DNA from: a virus
Taxonomy: Duplodnaviria; Caudoviricetes
IMG/VR virus record: IMGVR_UViG_3300031757_000376
Location: 1 to 28,580 of that record
DNA: 28,580 nucleotides
Direction: 5' to 3' (one strand)
This document shows positions 3,452 through 20,050 of the stretch, piece after piece. The notes under the pieces were generated by a model that was given only the letters and a program-made list of their open reading frames with translations, did not search any database and had not been told where the DNA came from. Each line of letters starts with the position of its first letter. Position 1 is the stretch's first letter. The position numbers and the translations under genes were made by a program.

Positions 3452-3573
3452 AACGACTCTTTACATATAGCTCCTTCTGCATACCAACATATATCGGCTC
3501 CTGCAGACTGTGAGAATGCTACCAAAGCAATAGCTATTAAGACTATTGCTATCCATTTACTTTTTTTGTTCAC
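3448..3573 (-). CDS. 41-aa secreted micropeptide (signal peptide plus 15-aa two-Cys mature peptide)
   Basis: Manual translation from GTG at 3573 (AGAGG upstream): MNKKSKWIAIVLIAIALVAFSQSAGA|DICWYAEGAICKESL*. Its TGA overlaps the receptor ATG (ATGA) and it fills the gap between the neighbouring genes. Confidence 0.7.
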   Translation of the reverse strand: MNKKSKWIAIVLIAIALVAFSQSAGADICWYAEGAICKESL

Positions 3574-4174
3574 TCTTGCCTCTTAATAACGTTTTTGGTT
3601 TCTTTGATCTTATTTTCTTGGCCACTTTATTTCTTTTATCTAATCTTTTCTTAACTTCTGTTGGGTCCATCCAAAAGTCTTTCCCATCTATCATGTCATT
3701 TATTTCTTGTTTGTCTAAGAATCCTTTGTAAACTGAATTAAATAAATGTCTAGCCCATTTATCATCTGCAATAACTGAGGCTAATTGTTCGTTTCCTTTG
3801 CCCCAGTTACCTGAACTGTAAGTATGGAACATGAAGTGACTATGTTCTGAGACTTCACATACATCAGCACATAAAAATATTAGAGTAGCTGCTGACATAC
3901 ACATACCTTCTACGGATGCTATAATAGTTGCTGGGCTATCAGATATTGTTCTCATCAACTGAATAGCTGTAAATATATCTCCTCCATTAGAATTTATATG
4001 TATAATGACTGCATCATTCTCAGTTGAATTCCTCATCAACTGATTCCAATCTTGATAGTCTTTTGCCTGTGTTATGTCGCCTGATATATAAAAATCAAAT
4101 ATACGAGCAACTGGCTTTTCATAAGCGTTGCTCGCGTTTGGTGGTGGGGTTTGTATTGGTTTAGATTCGCTCAT
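3557..4174 (-). CDS. clpP: ClpP-like serine protease
   Basis: IHINSNGGDIFTAIQL, GMCMSAATLIFL (catalytic Ser) and SHFMFH (catalytic His), plus DFWMDPTE. Confidence 0.8.
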   Translation of the reverse strand: MSESKPIQTPPPNASNAYEKPVARIFDFYISGDITQAKDYQDWNQLMRNSTENDAVIIHINSNGGDIFTAIQLMRTISDSPATIIASVEGMCMSAATLIFLCADVCEVSEHSHFMFHTYSSGNWGKGNEQLASVIADDKWARHLFNSVYKGFLDKQEINDMIDGKDFWMDPTEVKKRLDKRNKVAKKIRSKKPKTLLRGKSEQKK

Positions 4175-4514
4175 AATATCTTGTTATTGCCTTTATCCTT
4201 TCAATTTGTTTGTCAATGATTGCCGTTCTATTTGGCCAATGTATATATTCCTTTTCAGGATTCTTTTGCAAATTGTAAAGTAGAGGAAGTACAAGATCTT
4301 CTACATCACGAAGTTTGGTAGCCACATCACTTTCGATTAACGATCTATGTTCGTTGACCATACCAGAATTATCTGCATTTAAAATTTTAGCTTCTAGTTG
4401 TTGAAGCTTATCCATTATTTTATCTTCGTCAATGGAAGGAGCAGTTGGTTGTGCAGGTGCCTCGGAAGGTACCTCATCAACGGCGGTAAAACCAAAATCA
4501 AATTCGTTTGCCAT
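4161..4514 (-). CDS. Conserved hypothetical phage protein
   Basis: 117-aa ORF with an AGGAG SD. FDFGF N-terminus and LPLLYNLQKNPEKEYIHWPNR C-terminal motif, which I recall from T4-like aquatic phages. Confidence 0.75.
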   Translation of the reverse strand: MANEFDFGFTAVDEVPSEAPAQPTAPSIDEDKIMDKLQQLEAKILNADNSGMVNEHRSLIESDVATKLRDVEDLVLPLLYNLQKNPEKEYIHWPNRTAIIDKQIERIKAITRYYERI

Positions 4515-4532
4515 AATTGTCTCCTTTATACT

Positions 4533-4540
4533 TATTTATG
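4533..4540 (-). promoter_or_regulatory. T4-type late promoter variant (CATAAATA)
   Basis: One mismatch to TATAAATA, intergenic, just upstream of the SD and ATG of 4161..4514. Confidence 0.5.
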
Positions 4541-4550
4541 TAAGAAAAAA

Positions 4551-5159
4551 CTAGGTGTTCTTCCTTTGGTGTTTCTTAACCTTCTTCTGCAAGGCTTTAA
4601 GGGCACGTTCTAATTTAACTCTAGTAACTCTCATAGTAAAGTTCTGACCTAGCATGTGGTCAAACTCATGTAATATTACACGAGCGGAGACACCTGAATA
4701 CTCTTCTGCTATCTCTTCTCCTTCTTCATCAAAGTATTGTATGGCACAAGAGGTTGGTCTTTTAACCATTAAGTAAAGTCCTGGAAAAGATAGACAGCCT
4801 TCTCTAATAGACTCTTGTTCAGGGCCGACACCTATTATTTTAGGGTTAATAAAAATCTTTTCAAAGTCTCCTTTGCCGTTTCCTAATACGAAACAAGCAG
4901 CATTAATGCCTACTTGATTAGCAGACAAACCAACACCACCATCGCGGTACATAACCTCGAGTAGTCTTGATTTAATTTCTTTAGGATCTAACCCACCATG
5001 TTCATCCATATCTTCAAAACGAAATGGTGCTGGAACTCTACTTAAGAAAGGATCATTAAACTTTAATAACTCTAACTCATCAGCAGATTTAATTTCCGGA
5101 GACTTATATCTCTCGATTCCATTTCCATCTAAAAGAATGGGTTCTAATTCATCCTGCAT
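4551..5159 (-). CDS. def: Peptide deformylase
   Basis: All three PDF motifs are present: GVGLSANQVG, EGCLS, HEFDH. Start set at the ATG at 5159 (MQDELEP) to minimise overlap; the ORF extends to 5192. Confidence 0.93.
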   Translation of the reverse strand: MQDELEPILLDGNGIERYKSPEIKSADELELLKFNDPFLSRVPAPFRFEDMDEHGGLDPKEIKSRLLEVMYRDGGVGLSANQVGINAACFVLGNGKGDFEKIFINPKIIGVGPEQESIREGCLSFPGLYLMVKRPTSCAIQYFDEEGEEIAEEYSGVSARVILHEFDHMLGQNFTMRVTRVKLERALKALQKKVKKHQRKNT

Positions 5160-5535
5160 CTTTTCCGAGATGCTTGTAGGTGTCTTTTTCATATTTAATA
5201 AATAACTCCTCTCCTGCTTTTATATTTTCAGTGGTAAAGAAATGCGCTTTAGGACCTTCGATCTCTGCAAATATATTTGGTGTCTCACTATGATTTATAA
5301 ATCCTCCTAGTGGAGTACGTTCCCAATATTTATCGCCCCATTTCTCTCCGTCCCAATCGTGCATGACAAACACATGAGATAAACCTAAGTCTGTCCCTTG
5401 TTTTATGTCTTCTTTCGCGAACAATCCTTGTCCATGGACATCACTGTCCCCAATTCGTAAACTCGGTGGTAAAGGCATGTAAGAGTCTTCATCAAACTCC
5501 ACTGACTTTGACGCAAGTGTTACCATTTCTTCCAT
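5149..5535 (-). CDS. Minimal SET-domain protein (putative lysine methyltransferase)
   Basis: SDVHGQGLFAKEDIKQG, GGFINHSETPN and IKAGEELFIKY match the SET signature motifs. Confidence 0.88.
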   Translation of the reverse strand: MEEMVTLASKSVEFDEDSYMPLPPSLRIGDSDVHGQGLFAKEDIKQGTDLGLSHVFVMHDWDGEKWGDKYWERTPLGGFINHSETPNIFAEIEGPKAHFFTTENIKAGEELFIKYEKDTYKHLGKDAG

Positions 5536-5765: not shown

Positions 5766-7432
5766 ACTATTATGCTATAATTTTGTTTCTTTTCAAACTT
5801 AACTACCGATCTAAATTTATCGAATAGTTGGTCTCCCTTGTGAGATATTACGAATACATTGGTATCGTTACCAATAGTTTCTAATAGTTGCATAACATAT
5901 TGGGTTCCATCTGTGTCCAACGAACTATCAAACACTTCATCTAATAATAAAATGTTTGTACTAGCGCTGTTTTTCATCTTGGCTATTGTTCTCCAAGTAA
6001 ATACTAACGCTAAGTCTATTCTTTGTTTCTCTCCTTCACTAAACGATGCGTAACTAAATTTATCTCTAAACCTGGATTTAATTGTTTCTTTGAACGTCTC
6101 ATCTAAATCAAACTGAACAAAAAAGTCCATGGCTGCTAGGTATTTATTAACTAATTTGTTTATGATTGGCAAATAGGCTTTAATTATCTTAGTTTTAATA
6201 CCAGAATCTTTTAAAAGGGACTGTGCTACTTCATAATAGTGTCCTTCCTCTGTCATTTTTATCTTGTCTTGTTGTTTTGACATAGCATCCTTAGCTAAGG
6301 TTTTTAATTTTGTTCTCTCCTTAGTTATATCACCTACTTTATTTTGTGTGTCAGCAAGTTCTAACTGTAATCGTTGTAATATTCTTTGTTGTGTAATACT
6401 TTCGTTATTGTGTTCCATTATCTTTTGATCTAATTCAAATACCTTTTCAACCAAGGCTTCTACTTCAACATACTTTTCTTCTAATTCATCTAAAGCTATT
6501 TGTAATTCATTAATCTTTTCTTCATCTCTAGCTGTCATCACTTCCTTGTGATCATGAGCTATCCCTTGCTGACACGTGGGGCATTCGTCATTGTCATGAA
6601 AGAAGTTTAAGTCTGTTCTGCAGTTACTAATTTGGAGGGTAAATTTTCTTTTGTATTCTTCGAGTCTGCTCTTTTTCTCAAGTACATCACCCATTGCCTT
6701 CTTCTCGATTGTTGTGCTCTTCGCAAAGCCACTCGCCGTCTCGATCGCATCTTCTGCCTCCCTAATTGCTAATGCTATTGTTTCTACTTTAGACTTTTTA
6801 TCGTCTTCTAATGTCTTTATATATGATTCTTGGAGAGTCGCCTTTTGTTTAGCTACATCTACTTGACCTTCTAGTATTCTAATTTGATTTTCTAAAGTCG
6901 TTATCTTATTTTTAAGAACTTTATTCATGGAAGTAAATATAGTAATATCTAATATGTCTTCTATGATCTCTCGCCTAGCTCCTAAATGTAGTTGCATAAA
7001 AGGAGTGAACGATGCACTCCCTAACATTACAATCTGTGTGAATGATTTGTAATTTAATTTTAAAATATTCTCTTCTAGATATTTTTGAAAGTCTCTTATG
7101 TTGGCATCTTTATCCAACTTAATACCGTTTACTTCTATCTCAAATACTTTAGGCAATTCACCTCGTCGTATTAAATAGTTTCTTTTACCAATGTCAAAAT
7201 TAATTTCAACCATTAATTTTTTTCCGTTGATTGAATTAACTAACTGAGGTTTGGATACGTTTCTGAATGGCTTATTGAATAAGGCAAAGGTTAAAGCATC
7301 TAACATTGTAGATTTTCCACTACCATTCTCACCAACAATTAATGTGCTGGGAGATTTATCAAACTGTATTTCTGTCCATGCGTTGCCTGTAGACAGAAAA
7401 TTTTTCCATCTTATATTCTTAAATGTTATCAT
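5762..7432 (-). CDS. gp46: Recombination endonuclease subunit gp46 (Rad50/SbcC-like)
   Basis: Walker A GENGSGKS, CPTC zinc hook, FSEGEKQRID signature, LLDEVFD Walker B. Confidence 0.96.
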   Translation of the reverse strand: MITFKNIRWKNFLSTGNAWTEIQFDKSPSTLIVGENGSGKSTMLDALTFALFNKPFRNVSKPQLVNSINGKKLMVEINFDIGKRNYLIRRGELPKVFEIEVNGIKLDKDANIRDFQKYLEENILKLNYKSFTQIVMLGSASFTPFMQLHLGARREIIEDILDITIFTSMNKVLKNKITTLENQIRILEGQVDVAKQKATLQESYIKTLEDDKKSKVETIALAIREAEDAIETASGFAKSTTIEKKAMGDVLEKKSRLEEYKRKFTLQISNCRTDLNFFHDNDECPTCQQGIAHDHKEVMTARDEEKINELQIALDELEEKYVEVEALVEKVFELDQKIMEHNNESITQQRILQRLQLELADTQNKVGDITKERTKLKTLAKDAMSKQQDKIKMTEEGHYYEVAQSLLKDSGIKTKIIKAYLPIINKLVNKYLAAMDFFVQFDLDETFKETIKSRFRDKFSYASFSEGEKQRIDLALVFTWRTIAKMKNSASTNILLLDEVFDSSLDTDGTQYVMQLLETIGNDTNVFVISHKGDQLFDKFRSVVKFEKKQNYSIIV

Positions 7433-8490
7433 ATAGTATCTTGAGCCTCTATATAAAGGCTCTGCAACAGATTTTTGATCCTTTGTTTTGATAGATCTGT
7501 TTCAACAACGTCAACGTATTCTTTTAATAGTGTCATTGTATCTTCTAAGTTTACATCTTCACCTATAGCTTCGTCCTCAAACTCTGAGAAGTCTTCTATA
7601 ATTTTTAAGTCAATTAAGTTACATTGATATAGCTTATCTACAAAATGATCAAACCTTTTGAAGTCTGTCTTCTTACTTACTATTAGCTTAACACTACCAC
7701 CAGTGACAGTATCGAAATCAAAATTGCTGATGTCATTAACACCTTCAAAATGGGAGTCGTCGTAATAGATTTTGTGGAAGAGTCTAAATGGGTTATTGTA
7801 ATATACCAAAGATCTTTTACCCGTGTCATAAATAGCGAAGCCTCTGGGGTCGTTGTAGTCAGACCAAGTAATTTCGTAAGGGTTTCCCATATAAGTAACG
7901 TTCCCTCGACTATGGCGGTGATGAAAGTGGCCGCTAACAACAAGGTCAAATTGACTAAAAATACTAGCGTCCATGCCGTGAAGGTTAGGCATTCCAGGAA
8001 CCAGGAGAAAGCCTGTGAGTTCCAAATGCGAGAAGCATGTCGTTGCGTCTGTTGTTTTAATTGTTTCCATTGTGTGTTCATAATTATCTGTGCATATCCA
8101 TGGTAAGAACAATACCTTTTCCCTATCAAGTTGTACCTCGGTAGGGTCTTCGTATATTGTTATATTATTGTATTCTCCTAACAATAAACTAGGAGAGTTT
8201 ACTTCATTTGTATTCTTAAAATAAGTATCATGGTTGCCAGGTATCATATGTATTTCAATACCTAAATCACGTGCCTTGTCAAAGAAATACCTTTTACAAG
8301 ACTGGAGTATATTATAATTAATATATTTCCGTCTATCAAATACGTCACCTAAATGACATATAGTTTTTATCCCTTGCTCTTCTAAGTGAGGGAAGAAATA
8401 ATCGTCGTAGAACTTAGCAAAGAAATTATCAAAAGATAAATTGTCTGATCTGGCACCAAAGTGGGTGTCTGTAACTAGAGCTACTTTCAT
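7429..8490 (-). CDS. gp47: Recombination endonuclease subunit gp47 (Mre11/SbcD-like)
   Basis: DTHFG, GDVFDRR, GNHD and SGHFH phosphoesterase motifs; adjacent to gp46. Confidence 0.96.
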   Translation of the reverse strand: MKVALVTDTHFGARSDNLSFDNFFAKFYDDYFFPHLEEQGIKTICHLGDVFDRRKYINYNILQSCKRYFFDKARDLGIEIHMIPGNHDTYFKNTNEVNSPSLLLGEYNNITIYEDPTEVQLDREKVLFLPWICTDNYEHTMETIKTTDATTCFSHLELTGFLLVPGMPNLHGMDASIFSQFDLVVSGHFHHRHSRGNVTYMGNPYEITWSDYNDPRGFAIYDTGKRSLVYYNNPFRLFHKIYYDDSHFEGVNDISNFDFDTVTGGSVKLIVSKKTDFKRFDHFVDKLYQCNLIDLKIIEDFSEFEDEAIGEDVNLEDTMTLLKEYVDVVETDLSKQRIKNLLQSLYIEAQDTI

Positions 8491-8492
8491 AT

Positions 8493-8966
8493 TTAGCCCT
8501 CGTATATTGCTGAATTAGCCCCATGTTCCCTTACTTCACAAGCGACACAATAGCATCGCCCTCCTGTTAATTCTTTTACCAAGTCATTAGCAAAATGGAA
8601 TGCTTGCTCTGCAAACTTCTCACAGCCAACACCATTCATAACTACTACTTCTGTTAATCCTTTTTCTTCTAGCTTTAAAAAATCTTGTAATGCAGGATCG
8701 TCTTTATCAACTGCATGTTTATGATCAAAGTTATTTTTTAACCATGCTTTTAAGTCCTTCAAGCCTCCAAAATCCACTACCCAATTCTTATTATCTAAAC
8801 GATCACAACCAAATTTAAAACTAAACGACAAAGCGTAACCATGTAGTAAACTACAATGACTGTGCGTTGCTGCATGTTGTCTAAAAACTGCTGATAAGCC
8901 TTCTTCGTGGCCATATGTTTTTGTTGAATAGTGTTTATAATCTATATACGGATCTGGTCTGTTCAT
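8493..8966 (-). CDS. queD: 6-carboxy-5,6,7,8-tetrahydropterin synthase
   Basis: HCSLLHGY (CxxxHGx), WVVDFGGLK, FDH and GCEKFAE motifs; clustered with folE and queE. Confidence 0.9.
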   Translation of the reverse strand: MNRPDPYIDYKHYSTKTYGHEEGLSAVFRQHAATHSHCSLLHGYALSFSFKFGCDRLDNKNWVVDFGGLKDLKAWLKNNFDHKHAVDKDDPALQDFLKLEEKGLTEVVVMNGVGCEKFAEQAFHFANDLVKELTGGRCYCVACEVREHGANSAIYEG

Positions 8967-10030
8967 ATTAACTCCTGATATAAGTTTGTTGCCGAGAAGT
9001 AATGCTTCTCAAGTTTTTCTCTATTAGTATTTAATGCGCCTTGTATCTCAGGCAAGTTATAATTTTCCATTAAATATTTAATTCTATTTTTTAAACCAAA
9101 CTTGTTGGCTTGATACTGTTCCCAATTCTCTGTCCAGTCTGAAGGATATTTAAACACATCATCATACATTTCCATATAGGAAAGTCTGTTTGGAACAAAA
9201 GGTATGCCGCCTGTTATCATAATTTCATAACAAGATATGCCTAATGTCTCCTGTAAGTTAGCACTGAATACCATCTTTGCTTGTCCTAATAACAAGTGAT
9301 AGTCTTCTTTCTTTAAATTAAACTCCGAACAATTCATAAAATCATATTCAGGAAGTGCAACTTCTAAGTCTTTAAATATTTCTAACTGTTTCTCTGGTGC
9401 ATTTCTGTGTGGAAACAATATTAGATCTTGTTTCTCTACACCCATTGTATCTCTATCAATGGTTGGTTTTAAATATTCCATTGGCCAGCCTGTTCTAACC
9501 ATTTTACTTTGTAAATATTCTTGTTGTGAAGGATCAGGTGCCATAACACTAGCAAACATTCCTATATGGAATTGACTAGCGAAATAATTTTTATCAAACG
9601 CATCGAACATTGCTAACTCTGCATACCTTACCCAAGGTACTGGTCCTATGTTTCTACCTAAGAAATCATTAGCATCATAACTTCCTGCATGCCAAAGTCC
9701 ATGTGTTGTAACATCATAACCCAATAAAGATATCATATATTTTAAATTTAAGATACCTGGATGCCAAGCGTCAGCAAATACAAAATGATCTCCATCTTTT
9801 ATCTTGCCTTCTGCAAAGAATTGTGCTAAAAGTTTTGTTTGTTCTGACTTGTATATGTTAGTGGTGGCAAAATCTAAAAAAGATCCTGAGGAAACATCAG
9901 ACTCTATAACAGGTCCTTCTATAACTGTTATGTCTTGTCCTGTTTGGTCCGCTATTGATTGTGGAAATTCTGTTTTCCATTGTGATGTATATCTTGTCTC
10001 GACATACTCAAGATCAATTAAATAAATCAT
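8963..10030 (-). CDS. Putative glycosyltransferase (GT-B fold, GT4-like)
   Basis: C-terminal donor-binding motifs ILFPHRNAPEKQ and SANLQETLGISCYE (Ex7E), then VPNRLSYMEM. Likely start is MIYLIDLE at 10030; the ORF extends to 10063. Confidence 0.72.
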   Translation of the reverse strand: MIYLIDLEYVETRYTSQWKTEFPQSIADQTGQDITVIEGPVIESDVSSGSFLDFATTNIYKSEQTKLLAQFFAEGKIKDGDHFVFADAWHPGILNLKYMISLLGYDVTTHGLWHAGSYDANDFLGRNIGPVPWVRYAELAMFDAFDKNYFASQFHIGMFASVMAPDPSQQEYLQSKMVRTGWPMEYLKPTIDRDTMGVEKQDLILFPHRNAPEKQLEIFKDLEVALPEYDFMNCSEFNLKKEDYHLLLGQAKMVFSANLQETLGISCYEIMITGGIPFVPNRLSYMEMYDDVFKYPSDWTENWEQYQANKFGLKNRIKYLMENYNLPEIQGALNTNREKLEKHYFSATNLYQELI

Positions 10031-10376
10031 TTTGTACGATTGCCCCGTTTTCATTATCCTCATACACTTCTACTTGAGTAGCTCTATTAGGATAATATTC
10101 TTCTATATAATTTATAAGACTTTCAGCCATCATCTCACATGACTGGTAGTCTAGTTCTAGGAAGCCTGCTTCGTATAAACCTTCTATTTCTCTTTTAAAT
10201 AAAATGAATTCTACTTCCCTATTGTCGTGCATAACTTCTAACGTAACATAGAAGTGAAAGATATGTCTGTGTGGATATTGTAAAAACTCTACACCAGGAA
10301 CATCCTTTGCATCAGGCCATTTGTGTATGCCTTCTTTCTGAAAACTAACTTTAATAAACTTTTTTCTAACTGACAT
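10014..10376 (-). CDS. dpdL: QueD-like T-fold protein, DpdL-type (putative 7-carboxy-7-deazaguanine decarboxylase)
   Basis: LQYPHRHIF matches the LxxxHRHxF motif I recall for DpdL. SCEMMAE and VEVYEDNENGA resemble T-fold elements. It sits directly downstream of the DpdA-like gene. Confidence 0.62.
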   Translation of the reverse strand: MSVRKKFIKVSFQKEGIHKWPDAKDVPGVEFLQYPHRHIFHFYVTLEVMHDNREVEFILFKREIEGLYEAGFLELDYQSCEMMAESLINYIEEYYPNRATQVEVYEDNENGAIVQNDLFN

Positions 10377-10433: not shown

Positions 10434-11702
10434 TCATTCAAACATCTCCTCTAGACTTACTGGCATTTCTTTAGCTACTGCCATGGACTTCATAGCTCCA
10501 CCTAAATATTGATTTGTTTCCCACGCCATATAATCATCTTTATTTTTTACATTATATAGGTTCCTAAACTGTCCATCAAGTTTCATCTTACGAGTAAACT
10601 TTAAAAGGGCATCCTTATCTAACAACATCTGTTCTAAGTGTTGCATGAAGTTTCTAATAGACATTAGTATAAAAGCTGTCCTCACATACAACCACGTATT
10701 CAAGTTGCCGTATTCTTCTTTAGCTTTCATACTCGGGGTGTTTAATAATTTATGAAATTCGTCTATTTCTACACCCAAATTGATCGTTTCCATACAGTTT
10801 TGATACATTTCGCGATACAAATTGGACATCTGTCTATTAAACTTAGTTGTGCCTTGTCCCATGTAGAATAACCCTGTCTCAACCGCCCTGCTGTGTGTAG
10901 TAGAGTCATAAGATATCTCTACGTTATCATATAAACCGTTCTGACAAAAGACTAAGTAAGGAACAATACGTCTTATTGAACCTACTCCTAATATATGTAA
11001 GTGCATCTTATCTCTTGGCCATGTCTTTGCTACTTCTGATGCTATAAATGATCTTTTAACATCTTCTAGTGGTCCTGTTCCAAGAGCAGCTGCTCCCATT
11101 GCCACACCACCAATCCTAGTGTGCCATTCACTTGGTATCTCTTCCATTAAACATTCATACCATCTCAAATAAGTCTCTACATCATTACCTTGTAAGATAA
11201 TATATGGTTCACAGCTGCTACCTTCTTCTTCAAAAATTTCTAATTGTCTTTTAACATTGCGTCCAGTTTTTCTTGCTAGCTCTTCATAGTTTTCGTGATC
11301 AAAGAACCTTTGTTTAACATCGTTCCTATCTGAGCGTTCTCCTGTTAGTATAACAGGTATCTCATCAAAGCACATACCAACATTAGCTCCTTTAGCCTGG
11401 TTCCTATATACTTTTTCTTTTAATTCGTCTGTAATTGTCATTCCTTGTGTAACAATTTGTAGTCCACCTGAGTCTGCATGTATGCTATGTGCTGCGTCAT
11501 GATATGGTTTGAATCTATCACCGAAAGAATGTTCTGTGTGTGCATTATAAAGTAATGAAAACTTATGACTGAATTGATCTTGTACTAATTTTTTTATTAG
11601 CATAGACACAATGCTTGTATTGGTTTCATCAAAAGCAATATTAGGATTACTCAAACGCATGTATGAGGTTCCTGATACTACATAATCTAAGGTGTGTTTC
11701 AT
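10434..11702 (-). CDS. dpdA: TGT-fold guanine transglycosylase, DpdA-like
   Basis: ADSGGLQ, FDEIP, ILQG, GGVAMG, HLHILGVG and SYDSTT follow the TGT catalytic motif order. It lacks the CxCxxC zinc site of tRNA Tgt and lies inside the que cluster. Confidence 0.78.
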   Translation of the reverse strand: MKHTLDYVVSGTSYMRLSNPNIAFDETNTSIVSMLIKKLVQDQFSHKFSLLYNAHTEHSFGDRFKPYHDAAHSIHADSGGLQIVTQGMTITDELKEKVYRNQAKGANVGMCFDEIPVILTGERSDRNDVKQRFFDHENYEELARKTGRNVKRQLEIFEEEGSSCEPYIILQGNDVETYLRWYECLMEEIPSEWHTRIGGVAMGAAALGTGPLEDVKRSFIASEVAKTWPRDKMHLHILGVGSIRRIVPYLVFCQNGLYDNVEISYDSTTHSRAVETGLFYMGQGTTKFNRQMSNLYREMYQNCMETINLGVEIDEFHKLLNTPSMKAKEEYGNLNTWLYVRTAFILMSIRNFMQHLEQMLLDKDALLKFTRKMKLDGQFRNLYNVKNKDDYMAWETNQYLGGAMKSMAVAKEMPVSLEEMFE

Positions 11703-12229
11703 GTCTTTAAAATTTCTATAAGCATATCTGCCTCAGCTTTTGCATCATCTAAAGCATTATGGTTGTTGGCTTTTGGTAAACGTTTATCTAATACATTCAT
11801 TAAAGTTCTTAGACAATAAATATCCCAGAACTTCCAAGGGTATTTTTCTCTGGCATCTCTATTAGAATTCCAACCTGATAATGTCATAGCGTTTTCCATT
11901 ATAACAACATCAAAATTGGCACCCATACCCCAAATGTTTCCTTCTTTAAAAAACGTAACGAATTTATCTATTGCTTCATCTAAAGGCAAAGGATCTACTG
12001 TTAGTGCCTGTCTTGCTTCCATGTCTTGTTGAGCCCACCACTCTACTGTTAGTGGATCTATATGTAAGCCTGCCTCTTTACAAGTCTTGGCATCTACATT
12101 TACATAAAATTCATCTACTATTTCTAAATTCTCAATTGCTACTGCTCCTATTGAAACAATAGCTGCATTAGATCTAGTTGATAATGTTTCTAAATCTAAT
12201 ACTACTTGTCTACTATGCGTGTCCACCAT
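11699..12229 (-). CDS. DEDDh 3'-5' exonuclease (DexA / RNase AS-like)
   Basis: LDLETLST..AAIVSIGAV, WGMGANFD, HNALDDA. Confidence 0.88.
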   Translation of the reverse strand: MVDTHSRQVVLDLETLSTRSNAAIVSIGAVAIENLEIVDEFYVNVDAKTCKEAGLHIDPLTVEWWAQQDMEARQALTVDPLPLDEAIDKFVTFFKEGNIWGMGANFDVVIMENAMTLSGWNSNRDAREKYPWKFWDIYCLRTLMNVLDKRLPKANNHNALDDAKAEADMLIEILKT

Positions 12230-12896
12230 TCATTTCCTGTAATTTTATATTGTCCATAAACTCTTCTTTTAGTGAAGGGTTCGTCTTTAGTTCACCTTTT
12301 AGAACTGTTGTTTGTGTGCTACTATTACTAGCTCTAATGCCTCTGTTCTCACAACACCCATGTCTTGCTTTAATATAAACACCTACTGCCTTAGACTTTG
12401 TAAGTTTCTCAATTCTATAAGCTATCATTTCACAAAGCTCTTCTTGTAAGTGGCCACGTGATGCTAAATGCTGTGCCACTCTAGTATATTTAGACAGTCC
12501 AATAACTTCTTCTCCTGGCATACATGCTACATAACATACACCATTCACTGGTTGGTGATGATGTGAACACATACTTTTTAAATCCATTCTAACTGTAATC
12601 AATTGATCATACTTTCCATCATTAGGAAATGCTGTTATTCTAGGATCGTCGTCATATCTTCCACCCATTATTTCTAGTATATACATTTTTGCTAAACGTC
12701 TAGCTGTGTCTATACTGTTAGGATCGTTGTGCCTGTCTATAATTAATGCATCTAAAACACCTTCGAACTTTTCTGTTAGTTCATCGATTAGATCTGATTT
12801 TTCAACTGCACTTATATATTTTGATATGTTATCTGCTGCATAGTAACGCTTACCATCTACTTCTAAACGTTGCTTAATCTTATCACTTACACTCAT
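12213..12896 (-). CDS. folE: GTP cyclohydrolase I
   Basis: SMCSHHHQPV, IGLSKYTRV, LQEEL and HGCCENRG. Likely start at 12896 (TAATG overlap with the PRTase stop); the ORF extends to 12926. Confidence 0.94.
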   Translation of the reverse strand: MSVSDKIKQRLEVDGKRYYAADNISKYISAVEKSDLIDELTEKFEGVLDALIIDRHNDPNSIDTARRLAKMYILEIMGGRYDDDPRITAFPNDGKYDQLITVRMDLKSMCSHHHQPVNGVCYVACMPGEEVIGLSKYTRVAQHLASRGHLQEELCEMIAYRIEKLTKSKAVGVYIKARHGCCENRGIRASNSSTQTTVLKGELKTNPSLKEEFMDNIKLQEMNGGHA

Positions 12897-13318
12897 TATT
12901 TTTTCTCCCAAGGAAATACTATCCATTGTTTATTATTATAGAGCCTTTCACCTTCAAAGTCAATACCCATGTTACCCTTTTTGGAGTAAAGTACAGCCCA
13001 TTGACTTTCTGGAAAAATGTTCCTAATTGATCCTATTGTTAATCCACTATCACATATATCGTCTACAAATAATATATCGTTTGGATCTTCTGTTGATTTT
13101 AATGCAACTGAAAGTGTATCTTTTTTGTTGCCATCTCTAGTTTGCCATTGTAAAGGTTCAAAAGGAATGTCTAATGCGTGGGATAGAATAACTCCTGGAA
13201 CAAGACCTCCCCTACTAACACCTACAATTTTTTTATAATTTCTTTCACCTATTTGTAGAGCCATAAGAAGACATATATTATACATCTCCTTCCAACCTAC
13301 ATATATATTGTCTGTCAT
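12896..13318 (-). CDS. Type I purine phosphoribosyltransferase (xanthine/guanine PRT-like)
   Basis: VGVSRGGLVPG, PRPP-binding loop LFVDDICDSGLT and C-terminal WIVFPWE. Likely start at 13318 (ATGA overlap); the ORF extends to 13330. Confidence 0.88.
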   Translation of the reverse strand: MTDNIYVGWKEMYNICLLMALQIGERNYKKIVGVSRGGLVPGVILSHALDIPFEPLQWQTRDGNKKDTLSVALKSTEDPNDILFVDDICDSGLTIGSIRNIFPESQWAVLYSKKGNMGIDFEGERLYNNKQWIVFPWEKK

Positions 13319-13527
13319 TTTGTAAACCACATTCTAATAGCGAAAACTCTAACGATTGCAATACATGTAAAACACCCTGTTAATAATATTGATATTGTAA
13401 AGGTTGATAATTCTAATACATCTATGAACAAGTACAAAAGGCCCACACTTATAGGCCAATTAATTATTAGGCCGGTAAATACTGTAACCAACGATTCTTT
13501 AAGTGCTTGCTTCTGTCTTTTGTTCAT
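13315..13527 (-). CDS. Small membrane protein with two predicted TM helices
   Basis: 70 aa with two hydrophobic segments and ATGA overlaps at both ends. Confidence 0.75.
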   Translation of the reverse strand: MNKRQKQALKESLVTVFTGLIINWPISVGLLYLFIDVLELSTFTISILLTGCFTCIAIVRVFAIRMWFTK

Positions 13528-13691: not shown

Positions 13692-14570
13692 TTATGTACC
13701 CCATGCGTTGCCAAATAATGTTATATGTAGTCGAGGGCTAAACTTATACCCTGTCTGCATACAAGCCTCTGCTACATCTTTTTCTGTTAGAGTTTGTTGT
13801 TCTAATGTAGCGCCTTCAGGCATACAATAAACAGCATCTAACTTAACTCCTGCTTCTGTGTATGCTTCTACAAATTCATCTACTTCTTTGAAGTCTGACA
13901 TATCTCTCACCACAAATTTGTTATATAAGTGACTATTTTCTACCTTGTTCATTCCCTCTAATACCTCTGGGACTAGTGCGTCAAACTGTTCTTCGCCTGA
14001 TAAACTTAACTTAGGAGAAGTGCTCCAAGTTATATGTAAATCTTTACCTTCATTATTAAAATAGTCTATCAACTGTTGTTGTAAATCTTGTGTCCCATTA
14101 GTTTCGTAAGTAACATTCTGTAAACCAACTTCTCTACACATATCCAAGAGGGCTGGCCAACACCTTTGCCAACCCAATAGAGGTTCACCACCTGTTATGA
14201 CTAAATGGATATCGTTCTTCTCATCAAACCTACCATTAGGTAATAGTTTAACAATACGATCGAAAACTTCTTCTAATGTTTCTGTTAATTGTAAATGTTT
14301 ATATTTCATAGCCCAACTGGCAGAACTATCACACCCTACCGGTGTAACAGGCAATTCTGCTATGGATTTATATGCTTCGGGATGTGTTTTATCTGCTTTA
14401 GGATCTGTAAAGTAAGGCATTTCCTCGACAGGAATTATATTATCTCTCTCCTGTCCAAAACCTCTACACTCAAAGTTGCAACCAAAAACTCGTAAGAATA
14501 TACTAGGAACACCTACGAATCTTCCTTCACCCTGTACGCTATAAAATACTTCGCTATATCTTATTTTCAT
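13692..14570 (-). CDS. queE: 7-carboxy-7-deazaguanine synthase (radical SAM)
   Basis: SEVFYSVQGEG, FLRVFGCNFEC...CDS, VITGGEPLL, ETNGT, SPKL and FSPRLH. Confidence 0.93.
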   Translation of the reverse strand: MKIRYSEVFYSVQGEGRFVGVPSIFLRVFGCNFECRGFGQERDNIIPVEEMPYFTDPKADKTHPEAYKSIAELPVTPVGCDSSASWAMKYKHLQLTETLEEVFDRIVKLLPNGRFDEKNDIHLVITGGEPLLGWQRCWPALLDMCREVGLQNVTYETNGTQDLQQQLIDYFNNEGKDLHITWSTSPKLSLSGEEQFDALVPEVLEGMNKVENSHLYNKFVVRDMSDFKEVDEFVEAYTEAGVKLDAVYCMPEGATLEQQTLTEKDVAEACMQTGYKFSPRLHITLFGNAWGT

Positions 14571-14611: not shown

Positions 14612-15220
14612 CTACTTACCCTTTTGGGCTGCTGCTTTTGCTTCTGCTGCTTCTTTTGCTTTAATTTTCTTGTCTAAATATAGTGGTCTACGTTTAACTT
14701 CTTTCTTACCTTCATTAGCCTTATCAGCTTTCTCATTGTCTGCTTCAAGTTGCTCAATGATGTTTCTCATATAACTAAGGTACTCATTGGAATGGTCTGA
14801 ACCATCAGCACTTGATTGTAAAATTTGTTCTATATCTAAGCTCTTAATATATTTAAATTTGGTTTCCATTTGACGTTTCTCTTTTTGGATACGTCTAATA
14901 AAAGCGTAGTATGTAATCTGTGTAAAGTATGCAAAAGGATTTTTAGATTTTGCTGGATCAAAGTTGTCCATATATGTAAGACAGTTTTCAATACCATCTA
15001 AAATCATTTCATCTCTAAATGTGTAGTTTACAAAATTTGATTTGAAGGCCAAGTGGTTTGCTATTTTAACAAAGCACTCTCCTAAGTAATTAGTTACACG
15101 TGGTTTTGGTTCACCACATTCTTCTGCTTCTATTCTTCTCTCTCTATACTCACTTATCTTGACAAGCATTTCTTTGTTGTCTATGTAGTGAGCTGAGTTT
15201 GGGTCTCTCCTTTTTGCCAT
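14612..15220 (-). CDS. gp55: Late-transcription sigma factor gp55
   Basis: HYIDNKE, YLGECFVKIANHL, NYTFRDEMILDGIENC and NPFAYFTQITYYAFIRRIQKEK. Confidence 0.95.
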   Translation of the reverse strand: MAKRRDPNSAHYIDNKEMLVKISEYRERRIEAEECGEPKPRVTNYLGECFVKIANHLAFKSNFVNYTFRDEMILDGIENCLTYMDNFDPAKSKNPFAYFTQITYYAFIRRIQKEKRQMETKFKYIKSLDIEQILQSSADGSDHSNEYLSYMRNIIEQLEADNEKADKANEGKKEVKRRPLYLDKKIKAKEAAEAKAAAQKGK

Positions 15221-18683: not shown

Positions 18684-19007
18684 TTAAAACTGTACCGATA
18701 CTCCACACCCACACGCTGATGACTGTTGAGGATTATTAAATTGAAACCCTTCGTTTAATCCGTCCCTCATCCAACTAATAGTAGTACCATCTAAATAATT
18801 TTCTGATAAGGAGCATACCCACATCTTAAATTTTCCAAAATCTATTTCGATATCACTCTCTTCTAGTGGTGCGTCAGCATAATCAAATTCATATTCGAAT
18901 CCTGCACACCCTCCGCCTATTAAGGCAAACCGTATGCCTTGTCTTTTATTACTCTCTACCTTTTCGATAGCATGTAGTAAGGCATCATCAGTAAAATCTA
19001 TATTCAT
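18684..19007 (-). CDS. iscA: A-type Fe-S carrier (IscA/HesB family)
   Basis: GGGCAGFEY, YLDGTTISW and FNNPQQSSACGCGVS. Confidence 0.93.
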   Translation of the reverse strand: MNIDFTDDALLHAIEKVESNKRQGIRFALIGGGCAGFEYEFDYADAPLEESDIEIDFGKFKMWVCSLSENYLDGTTISWMRDGLNEGFQFNNPQQSSACGCGVSVQF

Positions 19008-19432
19008 TCAGGTCCTCTATTATGTTTACGATCCGTTTTCTTCTGTTCCCAATGCACAATTGCTTGATTAATGCTAGCCTCTGCTAATACAGAACAATGT
19101 AACTTAATAGGCGGTAACTCTAATGCTTTTGCTATATCTCTATCTTTAATAAGTTTAGCCTCTTCAATCGTCCTACCCTTAAGCATGTCCACAAACAATG
19201 TTGAACTCGCTATTGCTGAGCCACAACCATAAGTCTTAAATTTCACATCTAAAATTGTATCCGTTTCCGGATCTAATTTGAGATCTAACTTCATGACATC
19301 TCCACAAGCTGGTGCTCCTGTCATTCCAGTGGCAACATCTGGATCATTAGGATCAAATCTGCCTACTGCATGTTTCTCTGGGTTTTTTAATACTGATTCA
19401 AATCTTTCTACTACCTGTTTACTGTACGCCAT
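19004..19432 (-). CDS. iscU: Fe-S scaffold IscU
   Basis: MAYSKQV, GAPACGDVMKL, FKTYGCGSAIASS and LPPIKLHCSVLAE (LPPVK-type motif). Confidence 0.95.
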   Translation of the reverse strand: MAYSKQVVERFESVLKNPEKHAVGRFDPNDPDVATGMTGAPACGDVMKLDLKLDPETDTILDVKFKTYGCGSAIASSTLFVDMLKGRTIEEAKLIKDRDIAKALELPPIKLHCSVLAEASINQAIVHWEQKKTDRKHNRGPE

Positions 19433-19522: not shown

Positions 19523-20050
19523 ATGTTTTACTATAACGATAATAAACTATGTGTTGTTTGCCTTGAAAGGTGTGGCCATACCAGCATGTTTGATTATTTT
19601 AACATACCTCCTTGGACCCAACAAAACCTTTTTGATTTTGAGACTGATCAACCCTTTTGGGTAAGGGACTTCAAACTGACAAAAACAAAAGAAAAAATTG
19701 TTGTTGTGCGGAACCCCTACGATAGACTTTTATCTGCAATCAAGAGTTCAAAATATATTTCTCACTTATCACCTTGGCGGAAAACAGATTGGATAAGAAG
19801 TCATTCTGTCCACTACCTGTTTAGATTAACTGATACTAAATTTAATATCATAGACTTTAATAAATTAAAAAACTATATTGGTCAACCCCACCAGGCACTG
19901 AAGACAAATTCTGTTGCGTTTGGGCATAAAGAAATTTTTAATGAGTTTTGGAGTGAGGAAGAGATGGAACGTGAATTCGTAGCATACAATAAAATAATGG
20001 AAGAGAGGACACCTATTACTGTAACTCATTGGAAAGACCTTTATAAATAA
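19523..20050 (+). CDS. Sulfotransferase-family-like protein
   Basis: ERCGHTSM resembles the 5'-PSB (PKxGxTS) motif and VVRNPYDRLLS the 3'-PB motif. Confidence 0.6.
   Translation: MFYYNDNKLCVVCLERCGHTSMFDYFNIPPWTQQNLFDFETDQPFWVRDFKLTKTKEKIVVVRNPYDRLLSAIKSSKYISHLSPWRKTDWIRSHSVHYLFRLTDTKFNIIDFNKLKNYIGQPHQALKTNSVAFGHKEIFNEFWSEEEMEREFVAYNKIMEERTPITVTHWKDLYK
20042..20049 (+). promoter_or_regulatory. T4 late promoter TATAAATA
   Basis: Exact consensus overlapping the previous stop codon, upstream of 20096. Confidence 0.65.

Follow-up and report, generated by a model that had tools for sequence, protein, structure and literature searches.

One branch of the 7-deazaguanine DNA-modification systems has a predicted glycosyltransferase (hereafter GT) as a constant component that has yet to be named. 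Taking its sequence, modelled fold and genomic company together, we consider it probable, at about 60%, that the transglycosylase DpdA2 inserts 7-deazaguanine into DNA and that GT then glycosylates the base there. The gene comes from a 28.6-kb fragment of a T4-like phage (28,580 nucleotides; hereafter the window), which is the entire IMG/VR record IMGVR_UViG_3300031757_000376 and represents a partial genome; family searches recognized in it genes for sheath, portal, protease, scaffold, major capsid, UvsY and gp46/47.

GT sits in a cassette with the order queE-PRTase-folE-exonuclease-dpdA2-dpdL-GT-queD, all on the minus strand, with two small genes between queE and the PRTase gene. QueE (CDG synthase, radical SAM; 13692..14570) was identified by phrog_2076 (E 2e-51), FolE (GTP cyclohydrolase I; 12213..12926) by PF01227 (E 2e-38), and QueD (CPH4 synthase; 8493..8966), so labelled already in the preliminary description, by PF01242 (E 9e-13) and phrog_2389. 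The xanthine/guanine-type phosphoribosyltransferase (PRTase; 12896..13330; PF00156, with NF006613 below cut-off) would likely recycle guanine released by the transglycosylase, and its cluster is a frequent cassette member, present in 70 of the 159 GT loci compiled below. The DEDD 3'-5' exonuclease inside the cassette (11699..12229; PF16473) belongs to a cluster found in 37 of the 159 loci and is not a constant partner. At its right border the cassette meets the gp47 nuclease gene (7429..8490, minus strand; family match and position), and at the other a gene at 14612-15220, presumably gp55-like by position and likeness, with no family match; the a-gt gene of T4 occupies the same slot. QueC was not found within the 28.6-kb window, nor was any tRNA or Rfam match, and the window ORFs scanned, covering 28.6 kb of a partial genome, include no gene for hydroxymethyl-pyrimidine (hmC) synthesis.

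Several other genes of the window are recorded here as separate observations. IscA-like and NifU-like Fe-S assembly genes (18684-19432, minus strand) could supply the radical-SAM QueE. A TonB-dependent receptor-like protein with a plug domain (PF07715; 1883-3451, minus strand) is encoded in this phage genome, and in 20 loci a similarly sized cluster is found close to the cassette. Downstream of gp46, ClpP-like protease, peptide deformylase and SET-domain genes occupy 3557-5535 on the minus strand. The sole long plus-strand ORF outside other genes (19523-20050) has a weak sulfotransferase match (PF03567, E 0.003), and an open-ended minus-strand ORF at 1-1773 carries HExxH and DLSGS motifs, which we take to suggest a metallopeptidase plus vWA protein.

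The GT reading frame runs on the minus strand from an ATG at 10030 to a TGA at 8963 (8963..10030; 355 aa); an alternative in-frame ATG at 10063 would give 366 aa, and homologues align from 10030. It overlaps both neighbours, as claimed earlier, by 17 nt with dpdL (10014-10376) and by 4 nt (ATGA) with queD (8493-8966), and its GC and GC3 (0.336 and 0.256) match the neighbours' 0.328-0.371 and 0.227-0.342. The window GT has no family in Pfam, PHROG, NCBIfam or PADLOC. The PF00534 and PF13439 profiles do not match it; its homologues from BCSR5, BUDD and Synechococcus phage BUCT-ZZ01 pass PF00534, the distant BCSR5 and BUDD proteins comfortably. In the ESM Atlas only unnamed viral clusters matched, one with PF00534 on 29% of its members. 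The family is large, taking in 7,999 of 8,000 scored candidates, 1,065 representatives at 50% identity and an estimated ~2,800 stretches of IMG/VR. None of 4,619 longer candidates fuses GT to DpdL or TGT, which is weak evidence.

The predicted structure (pLDDT 97, pTM 0.93; built on 141 sequences) matches GT-B enzymes over its whole length, with two Rossmann-like domains and a C-terminal crossover helix. The top fold matches are GT4/GT5/GT20-type enzymes, led by sucrose-phosphate synthase 6kih (VIA Z 25.3, rmsd 3.2, 314 aligned) and including BshA 6n1x (Z 24.2) and glycogen synthase (22.9), and lower matches include pterin glucosyltransferase 5zer (19.7), phage HY126 GT (18.7) and T4 AGT (17.4). 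Retaining enzymes of GT4 have an EX7E motif, a His after strand 4, and an Arg/Lys pair for the donor pyrophosphate. E261-x7-E269 (EX7E), H114, R209, E213 and K214 are conserved in at least 90% of the 141 GT sequences, and E261/E269, H114 and R209/K214 align with solved GT4-type proteins. According to this model, GT is a protein of GT-B fold whose GT4-type catalytic residues are intact, and we infer that GT would transfer sugar with retention. The N-terminal, acceptor domain carries a family-specific and nearly invariant set of its own, acidic and aromatic in character (E8, R13, Y14, W18, F51, K61, D87, W89, D119, D122, W133 and E138). A GT-B fold put to use without sugar transfer, as a scaffold, NDP-sugar hydrolase or base-binding helper, could account for the missing Pfam GT match of the window protein and for an identity of only 10-14% to the top-ranked solved GTs, but we regard it as highly improbable given the nearly invariant donor-binding residues and the recurrence of NDP-sugar tailoring genes beside GT.

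These tailoring genes vary from locus to locus. Of the 159 GT loci, 27 contain a UDP-glucose dehydrogenase-like gene, and GFO oxidoreductase, alcohol dehydrogenase and DegT-like genes are each present in 14. Genes for tailoring sugar nucleotides, or an additional GT, accompany 23 of 80 GT clusters, a set that takes in loci reached through DpdL or TGT, and cultured GT-bearing phages carry PIG-L-like deacetylases, an epimerase fragment and second GTs. Such accessory genes would fit a real, variable sugar donor. The window has none, and its GT would depend on an NDP-sugar made by the host. In Stenotrophomonas phage Moby, a gene annotated as inositol-3-phosphate synthase lies between folE and queC-dpdA2 (L244:2520-3770).

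The preliminary description had read GT as a sugar transferase and likened it to the T4 enzymes AGT and BGT. The first reading is partly supported, by the GT-B fold, by the intact catalytic residues and by a family almost never found outside deazaguanine loci; the analogy survives as a proposed functional likeness and a common GT-B fold, but not as kinship, since sequence homology to AGT is absent (hhalign probability 1.4%, 21 columns). In the structure comparison proposed at that time AGT ranked only 39th of the 50 fold matches listed (Z 17.4, rmsd 4.3, 304 aligned). GT is acidic (pI 4.8, net charge -20), compared with a family median pI of 5.7 and values of 6.1 for AGT and 9.05 for BGT, and a clamp motif was found on none of 196 GT sequences. 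Both properties leave DNA binding by GT a prediction, and we count them against DNA as the acceptor. A complex prediction of GT with DpdA2 scored 0.00, which we count neither for nor against binding.

The argument for DNA comes from the company that GT keeps. The 159 GT loci were drawn from cultured phages, the closest 32 and the best 80 of 582 in IMG/VR (overlapping sets), 43 in GTDB, and the window; 95 of them have long flanks (at least 5 kb upstream and at least 3 kb downstream). A DpdA-type TGT is present in 93 of these 95 and DpdL in 85, QueC in 1 of the 95 and in 1 of all 159, and DpdA3 in 0 of the 95, where statements on absent DpdA3 here and below refer to the phiST type only. The 64 short-flank loci have a TGT in 47 cases and DpdL in 52. 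The two long-flank loci without a nearby TGT, in Phosso and PhiXhv-15, have one elsewhere in the genome. These counts are redundant, as the same contigs recur; after clustering of the GTs at 60% identity, both partners are present in 38 of 45 clusters, a set that includes loci fetched through DpdL or TGT. Three TGT subfamilies accompany GT (DpdA2, a long PA5oct-type and a shorter DpdA1-like one), gene order is shuffled, and the linkage spans T4-like, jumbo and integrated elements. The linkage of GT with deazaguanine genes is far beyond chance. Occurrence of the family independently of such genes had been named as evidence that would speak against the original proposal; GT is almost never found away from them. 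In 63 of the 159 loci, including ACP17, an unnamed protein of ~175 aa is encoded near TGT and dpdL (L078:7483-8010; L003:6320-6718); it has no match in Pfam or NCBIfam and is absent from the window.

Searches that started from the partners gave the same picture. Among the best 80 of 552 DpdL loci, 43 have GT, 32 have phiST-type DpdA3 without GT, none has both and 5 show neither. Four of these five end at a contig edge, and the fifth, in a complete 328-kb genome, has GT ~28 kb away beside folE, so that the linkage survives a split of the cassette. Among the best 80 of 313 DpdA2 loci, 58 extend at least 3 kb downstream, and these comprise 52 with GT and DpdL and 6 with QueC and no GT; the 22 short ones comprise 12 with both GT and DpdL, 1 with DpdL only and 9 with neither. 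When the search began with the PA5oct-type TGT (best 80 of 598, all of them close relatives), GT and DpdL were both present in 30 of the 30 loci with at least 5 kb downstream, and QueC in none of the 80. GT is absent from the whole records of phiST, D479, RHph_I1_18, Ahp1 and Bakedbeans (the last with a TGT of unassigned type) and from five DpdA3-type IMG/VR records that, being only 14-74% complete, say little; of 36 DpdA3-type loci, only 20 are flanked by 3 kb on either side. Some phiST-type DpdA3 genes lie beside nucleotide kinase, MazG or dUTPase-like genes (L043:5424-7586; L042:6692-8581; L038:8065-9849), a hint that full replacement of G may be achieved at the nucleotide level.

These observations also bear on whether GT has anything to do with deazaguanine. 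It might act on another DNA base (such as hmC or hmU), on LPS of the host or on a protein of the virion, and be found here simply because the operon serves early DNA metabolism: the cassette is bracketed by gp55 and gp47, in the place of T4 a-gt, and the window is a partial genome that could have queC or hydroxymethyl-pyrimidine genes elsewhere. We find this very unlikely. The linkage holds over T4-like, jumbo and integrated elements, over TGT subfamilies and gene orders, and outlasts the splitting of a cassette, and no hydroxymethylase or TET enzyme was recognized among the 70 commonest neighbour clusters, some of which were run against Pfam.

The gene upstream of GT, called DpdL-like at first, encodes a true DpdL, the proposed T-fold CDG decarboxylase (10014..10376, minus strand). 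It is 39% identical to CGPG_00067 of phiST, has the LxxxHRHxF motif (LQYPHRHIF) and H18, H36, H38, R53 and E56, and retains the residues that Cui et al. 2023 (PMC10516641) name in their supplement. It is also 62-67% identical to DpdLs of GT-less cassettes, which argues that GT follows the kind of TGT and not a special DpdL. On a poorly resolved tree, GT-linked and GT-less DpdLs interleave and have their catalytic residues in common; this quick tree of 73 rows implies 13 changes, of which the starred branches force only 2, so that independent switches are uncountable. DpdL ends in QNDLFN across the GT start (10014-10034, minus strand), presumably a likeness to the bacterial beta-clamp motif; the Gln is not constant in relatives.

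The transglycosylase gene (10434..11702, minus strand) encodes a DpdA2-type DNA guanine transglycosylase, 31.8% identical to DpdA2 of VH7D (E 6e-45), with DSGGLQ, D113, QG, HxLG and D266. It matches TIGR00449 below the cut-off (E 1e-4), and the DpdA2 profile finds solved TGTs only weakly (E 0.68 and 0.87). Its C-terminus, SLEEMFE, is a gp45-clamp-like motif similar to the T4 polymerase tail SLDFLFG, which has a clamp role, and a clamp-like motif occurs in 47 of 65 distinct DpdA2 C-termini. The motif favours DNA over tRNA as the probable target. A longer C-terminus in GT-linked DpdA2 was considered and rejected, QueC-linked DpdA2 being equally long, and a distinct pocket in GT-linked DpdA2 or DpdL was looked for and not found. 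The long PA5oct-type TGT (median 519 aa; L002:6373-7995, L082:2278-3828) is distinct from phiST DpdA3 and nearer DpdA2 (E 3e-11 on the DpdA2 profile, 0.3 on the phiST-type DpdA3 profile); Cui et al. 2023 (PMC10516641) file the PA5oct TGT under DpdA3.

The order of events that we propose draws on both partners. DpdL has been modelled to take only the free base (PMC10516641 supplement). The DpdA2 pocket loop is alike in GT-linked and QueC-linked enzymes, suggesting that insertion of a small base comes first. Conserved aspartates of TGTs recognize the N1/N2/O6 edge. With a DpdL confined to the free base, this edge reading and an unenlarged pocket loop, the simplest order would be to decarboxylate, insert and then glycosylate. 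FolE, QueD and QueE, whose genes are present and whose chemistry is established, would make CDG from GTP. DpdL would remove the carboxyl from the free base, as proposed by Cui et al., and DpdA2, probably clamp-tethered by its C-terminal motif, would swap some guanines for this base, by analogy with the VH7D enzyme. GT would then transfer a sugar, with retention, from a host or phage NDP-sugar. The likely purpose is a larger mark against restriction in DNA that has exchanged only part of its guanine; phiST-type DpdA3 phages replace all G and keep no GT.

Alternatively, GT could act before or during insertion, supplying DpdA2 with a base that is already glycosylated or activated (for example as CDG acyl glycoside or as C7 glycoside) or helping it to use a poor substrate. 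That GT follows the TGT type and not DpdL agrees with this, yet the pocket loop of DpdA2 is not enlarged relative to QueC-linked enzymes, the TGT aspartates would exclude an N2 glycoside, and a CDG ester would leave DpdL without a role; we consider such a sequence of steps quite unlikely. Two published experiments are relevant to it. In Cui et al. (PMC10516641), VH7D DpdA2 inserts deazaguanines into DNA and CDG at low efficiency (Table 2), and ACP17 dpdA2 and dpdL alone gave no dDG in E. coli, for which the authors allow for missing enzymes; both results would suit action of GT before insertion, and the second would suit our preferred order as well. GT is the gene between dpdA2 and dpdL in ACP17. 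The ACP17 failure does not point to GT, however, since even the unglycosylated base was absent and the phiST pair also gave no product in the same kind of experiment (PMC10516641). That DpdL decarboxylase activity and GT activity are both predicted likewise counts against a firm reading. For PA5oct, whose DNA resists five enzymes with G-containing sites, a modified G was deduced from this resistance, and the base is not named in the section consulted (PMC12191111); this agrees with our preferred reading.

If DNA is the acceptor, we would place the sugar on C7 with slightly less than even odds, on N2 with a distinctly lower chance, and on some other link with a chance a little lower again. C7, a major-groove position left free by DpdL, is favoured because GT goes with DpdL and is missing from cassettes with QueC, in which that atom is occupied; in addition, polymerases tolerate major-groove substituents and bulky N2 adducts tend to stall them. 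Against C7, we know of no C-glycosylation by a retaining GT4-type enzyme. The case for N2 comes from HuiG, which uses the 2-amino group of a 7-deazapurine, and from the existence of DpdL-less loci.

HuiG is also a precedent for GT working on a free pathway molecule (7-deazaguanine base or nucleotide, CDG or a pterin) as a sink, store or secreted product, with the DNA carrying plain dDG. It transfers GlcNAc to the 2-amino group of a 7-deazapurine that is free (PMC7439116), and its family carries PF13439. GT is acidic, the closest folds act on small acceptors, with the pterin enzyme 5zer (Z 19.7) outranking T4 AGT (Z 17.4), and bacterial islands encode a Vut/YhhQ-like transporter, all of which would suit a free acceptor. 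Even so, the tightest partner of GT is a TGT (93/95), not FolE, QueD or QueE, and phiST-type cassettes, with the same precursors and the same DpdL, never keep GT. A free acceptor is in our estimation unlikely, and glycosylation of the base inserted in DNA remains the preferred reading.

Two sets of loci depart from the usual cassette. Alphaproteobacterial islands, often with an integrase, combine a PA5oct-type TGT, a Vut/YhhQ-like transporter and GT, sometimes with DpdL or a second GT (L129-L157, e.g. L142:4897-11062 and L150:9489-14315). In the 14 alphaproteobacterial loci whose maps show TGT, transporter and GT there is no folE or queE, and the island proteins scanned gave no PADLOC match. 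Nine long-flank bacterial islands have TGT, transporter and GT without DpdL nearby; of five genomes with such islands that were searched, four lack DpdL altogether and in one it lies just beyond the flank, and two of the four DpdL-free genomes, but not the other two, have a full QueC. The island GT keeps the same acceptor-domain residues. The island is possibly a bacterial DNA-modification element that scavenges its base. In Xanthomonas phage PhiXhv-15 (L044:612-9869), a divergent member of the GT family lies beside Gat-QueC, without DpdL, in a candidate cluster for a further elaborated deazaguanine; a PIG-L deacetylase, an oxidoreductase, a GNAT and a Leu/Phe-transferase-like gene are found there as well. 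DpdL-less islands and PhiXhv-15 together make it less likely that a free carbon 7 is strictly required, unless these systems import their base. A bolder version of our proposal, in which a widespread phage family writes a C7-glycosylated purine, with DpdL freeing C7, DpdA inserting the base, a GT4-like enzyme adding the sugar in the major groove and accessory genes varying that sugar, and in which the alphaproteobacterial islands do likewise with an imported base, is offered tentatively and seems to us doubtful as a whole.

To our knowledge, DNA glycosylation has so far been known only on pyrimidines. For GT-bearing cassettes, the product that we consider most likely is a purine in DNA with a sugar attached. 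A glycosylated deazaguanine in DNA was not described in the literature searched, which consisted mostly of titles and abstract starts, with subscription journals largely outside it, or in passages of PMC7824862, PMC6884629, PMC13282480, PMC7439116 and 10.64898/2026.04.15.718813; the earlier statement that no characterized example was known in phage DNA accords with this. Of the eight 7-deazaguanine derivatives of phage DNA listed by Cui et al. 2023 (PMC10516641), none has a sugar, and in that work "glycosyltransferase" has 0 matches in the supplement and "glycos" begins one word in the main text. If our reading is true, a glycosylated purine would be added to DNA chemistry, the G modification of PA5oct-like phages would get a name, DpdL systems would split into two products, and a possible tool for site-specific DNA labelling would be at hand. 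The GT family is very common and present in cultured phages, which makes the proposal directly testable.

Among characterized systems the nearest is the dDG system of Cellulophaga phage phiST (Cui et al. 2023, PMC10516641), which shares FolE, QueD, QueE and DpdL with the window and has no QueC in its cassette, and in which plain dDG stands at all G. It differs in its short DpdA3, where the window has DpdA2, GT and PRTase, and its whole genome encodes no GT of the window family. Phages ACP17 (Acidovorax), BUDD (Xanthomonas), BCSR5 (Burkholderia) and PA5oct (Pseudomonas), listed as DpdL phages in Data S1 (PMC10516641), carry GT next to the listed dpdA (YP_009609724, USV40851, QRE00063 and QCG76198, respectively), and in ACP17 and PA5oct the dpdA and dpdL accessions given by Cui et al. 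2023 flank that of GT. Several of the four also encode PIG-L, PAPS-reductase-like or epimerase-like proteins, which are absent from the window. The huimycin enzyme HuiG (PMC7439116) is likewise a glycosyltransferase within a FolE/QueD/QueE cluster that acts on a 7-deazapurine; it differs in its substrate, a free preQ0 carrying an O-methyl group, which it modifies on the 2-amino nitrogen, and in a pathway that includes QueC and no TGT, and is likened to GT by function and context only. BshA, MshA and sucrose-phosphate synthase (GT4), the best structural matches, share the EX7E, His and Arg/Lys donor residues with GT and differ in identity (10%), acceptor-domain residues and context. T4 AGT and BGT share the GT-B fold and, as proposed here, the post-replicative glycosylation of DNA, and a-gt sits in the genomic slot taken by the window cassette; the acceptor of the T4 enzymes is the hydroxyl of hmC, a group that 7-deazaguanine lacks.
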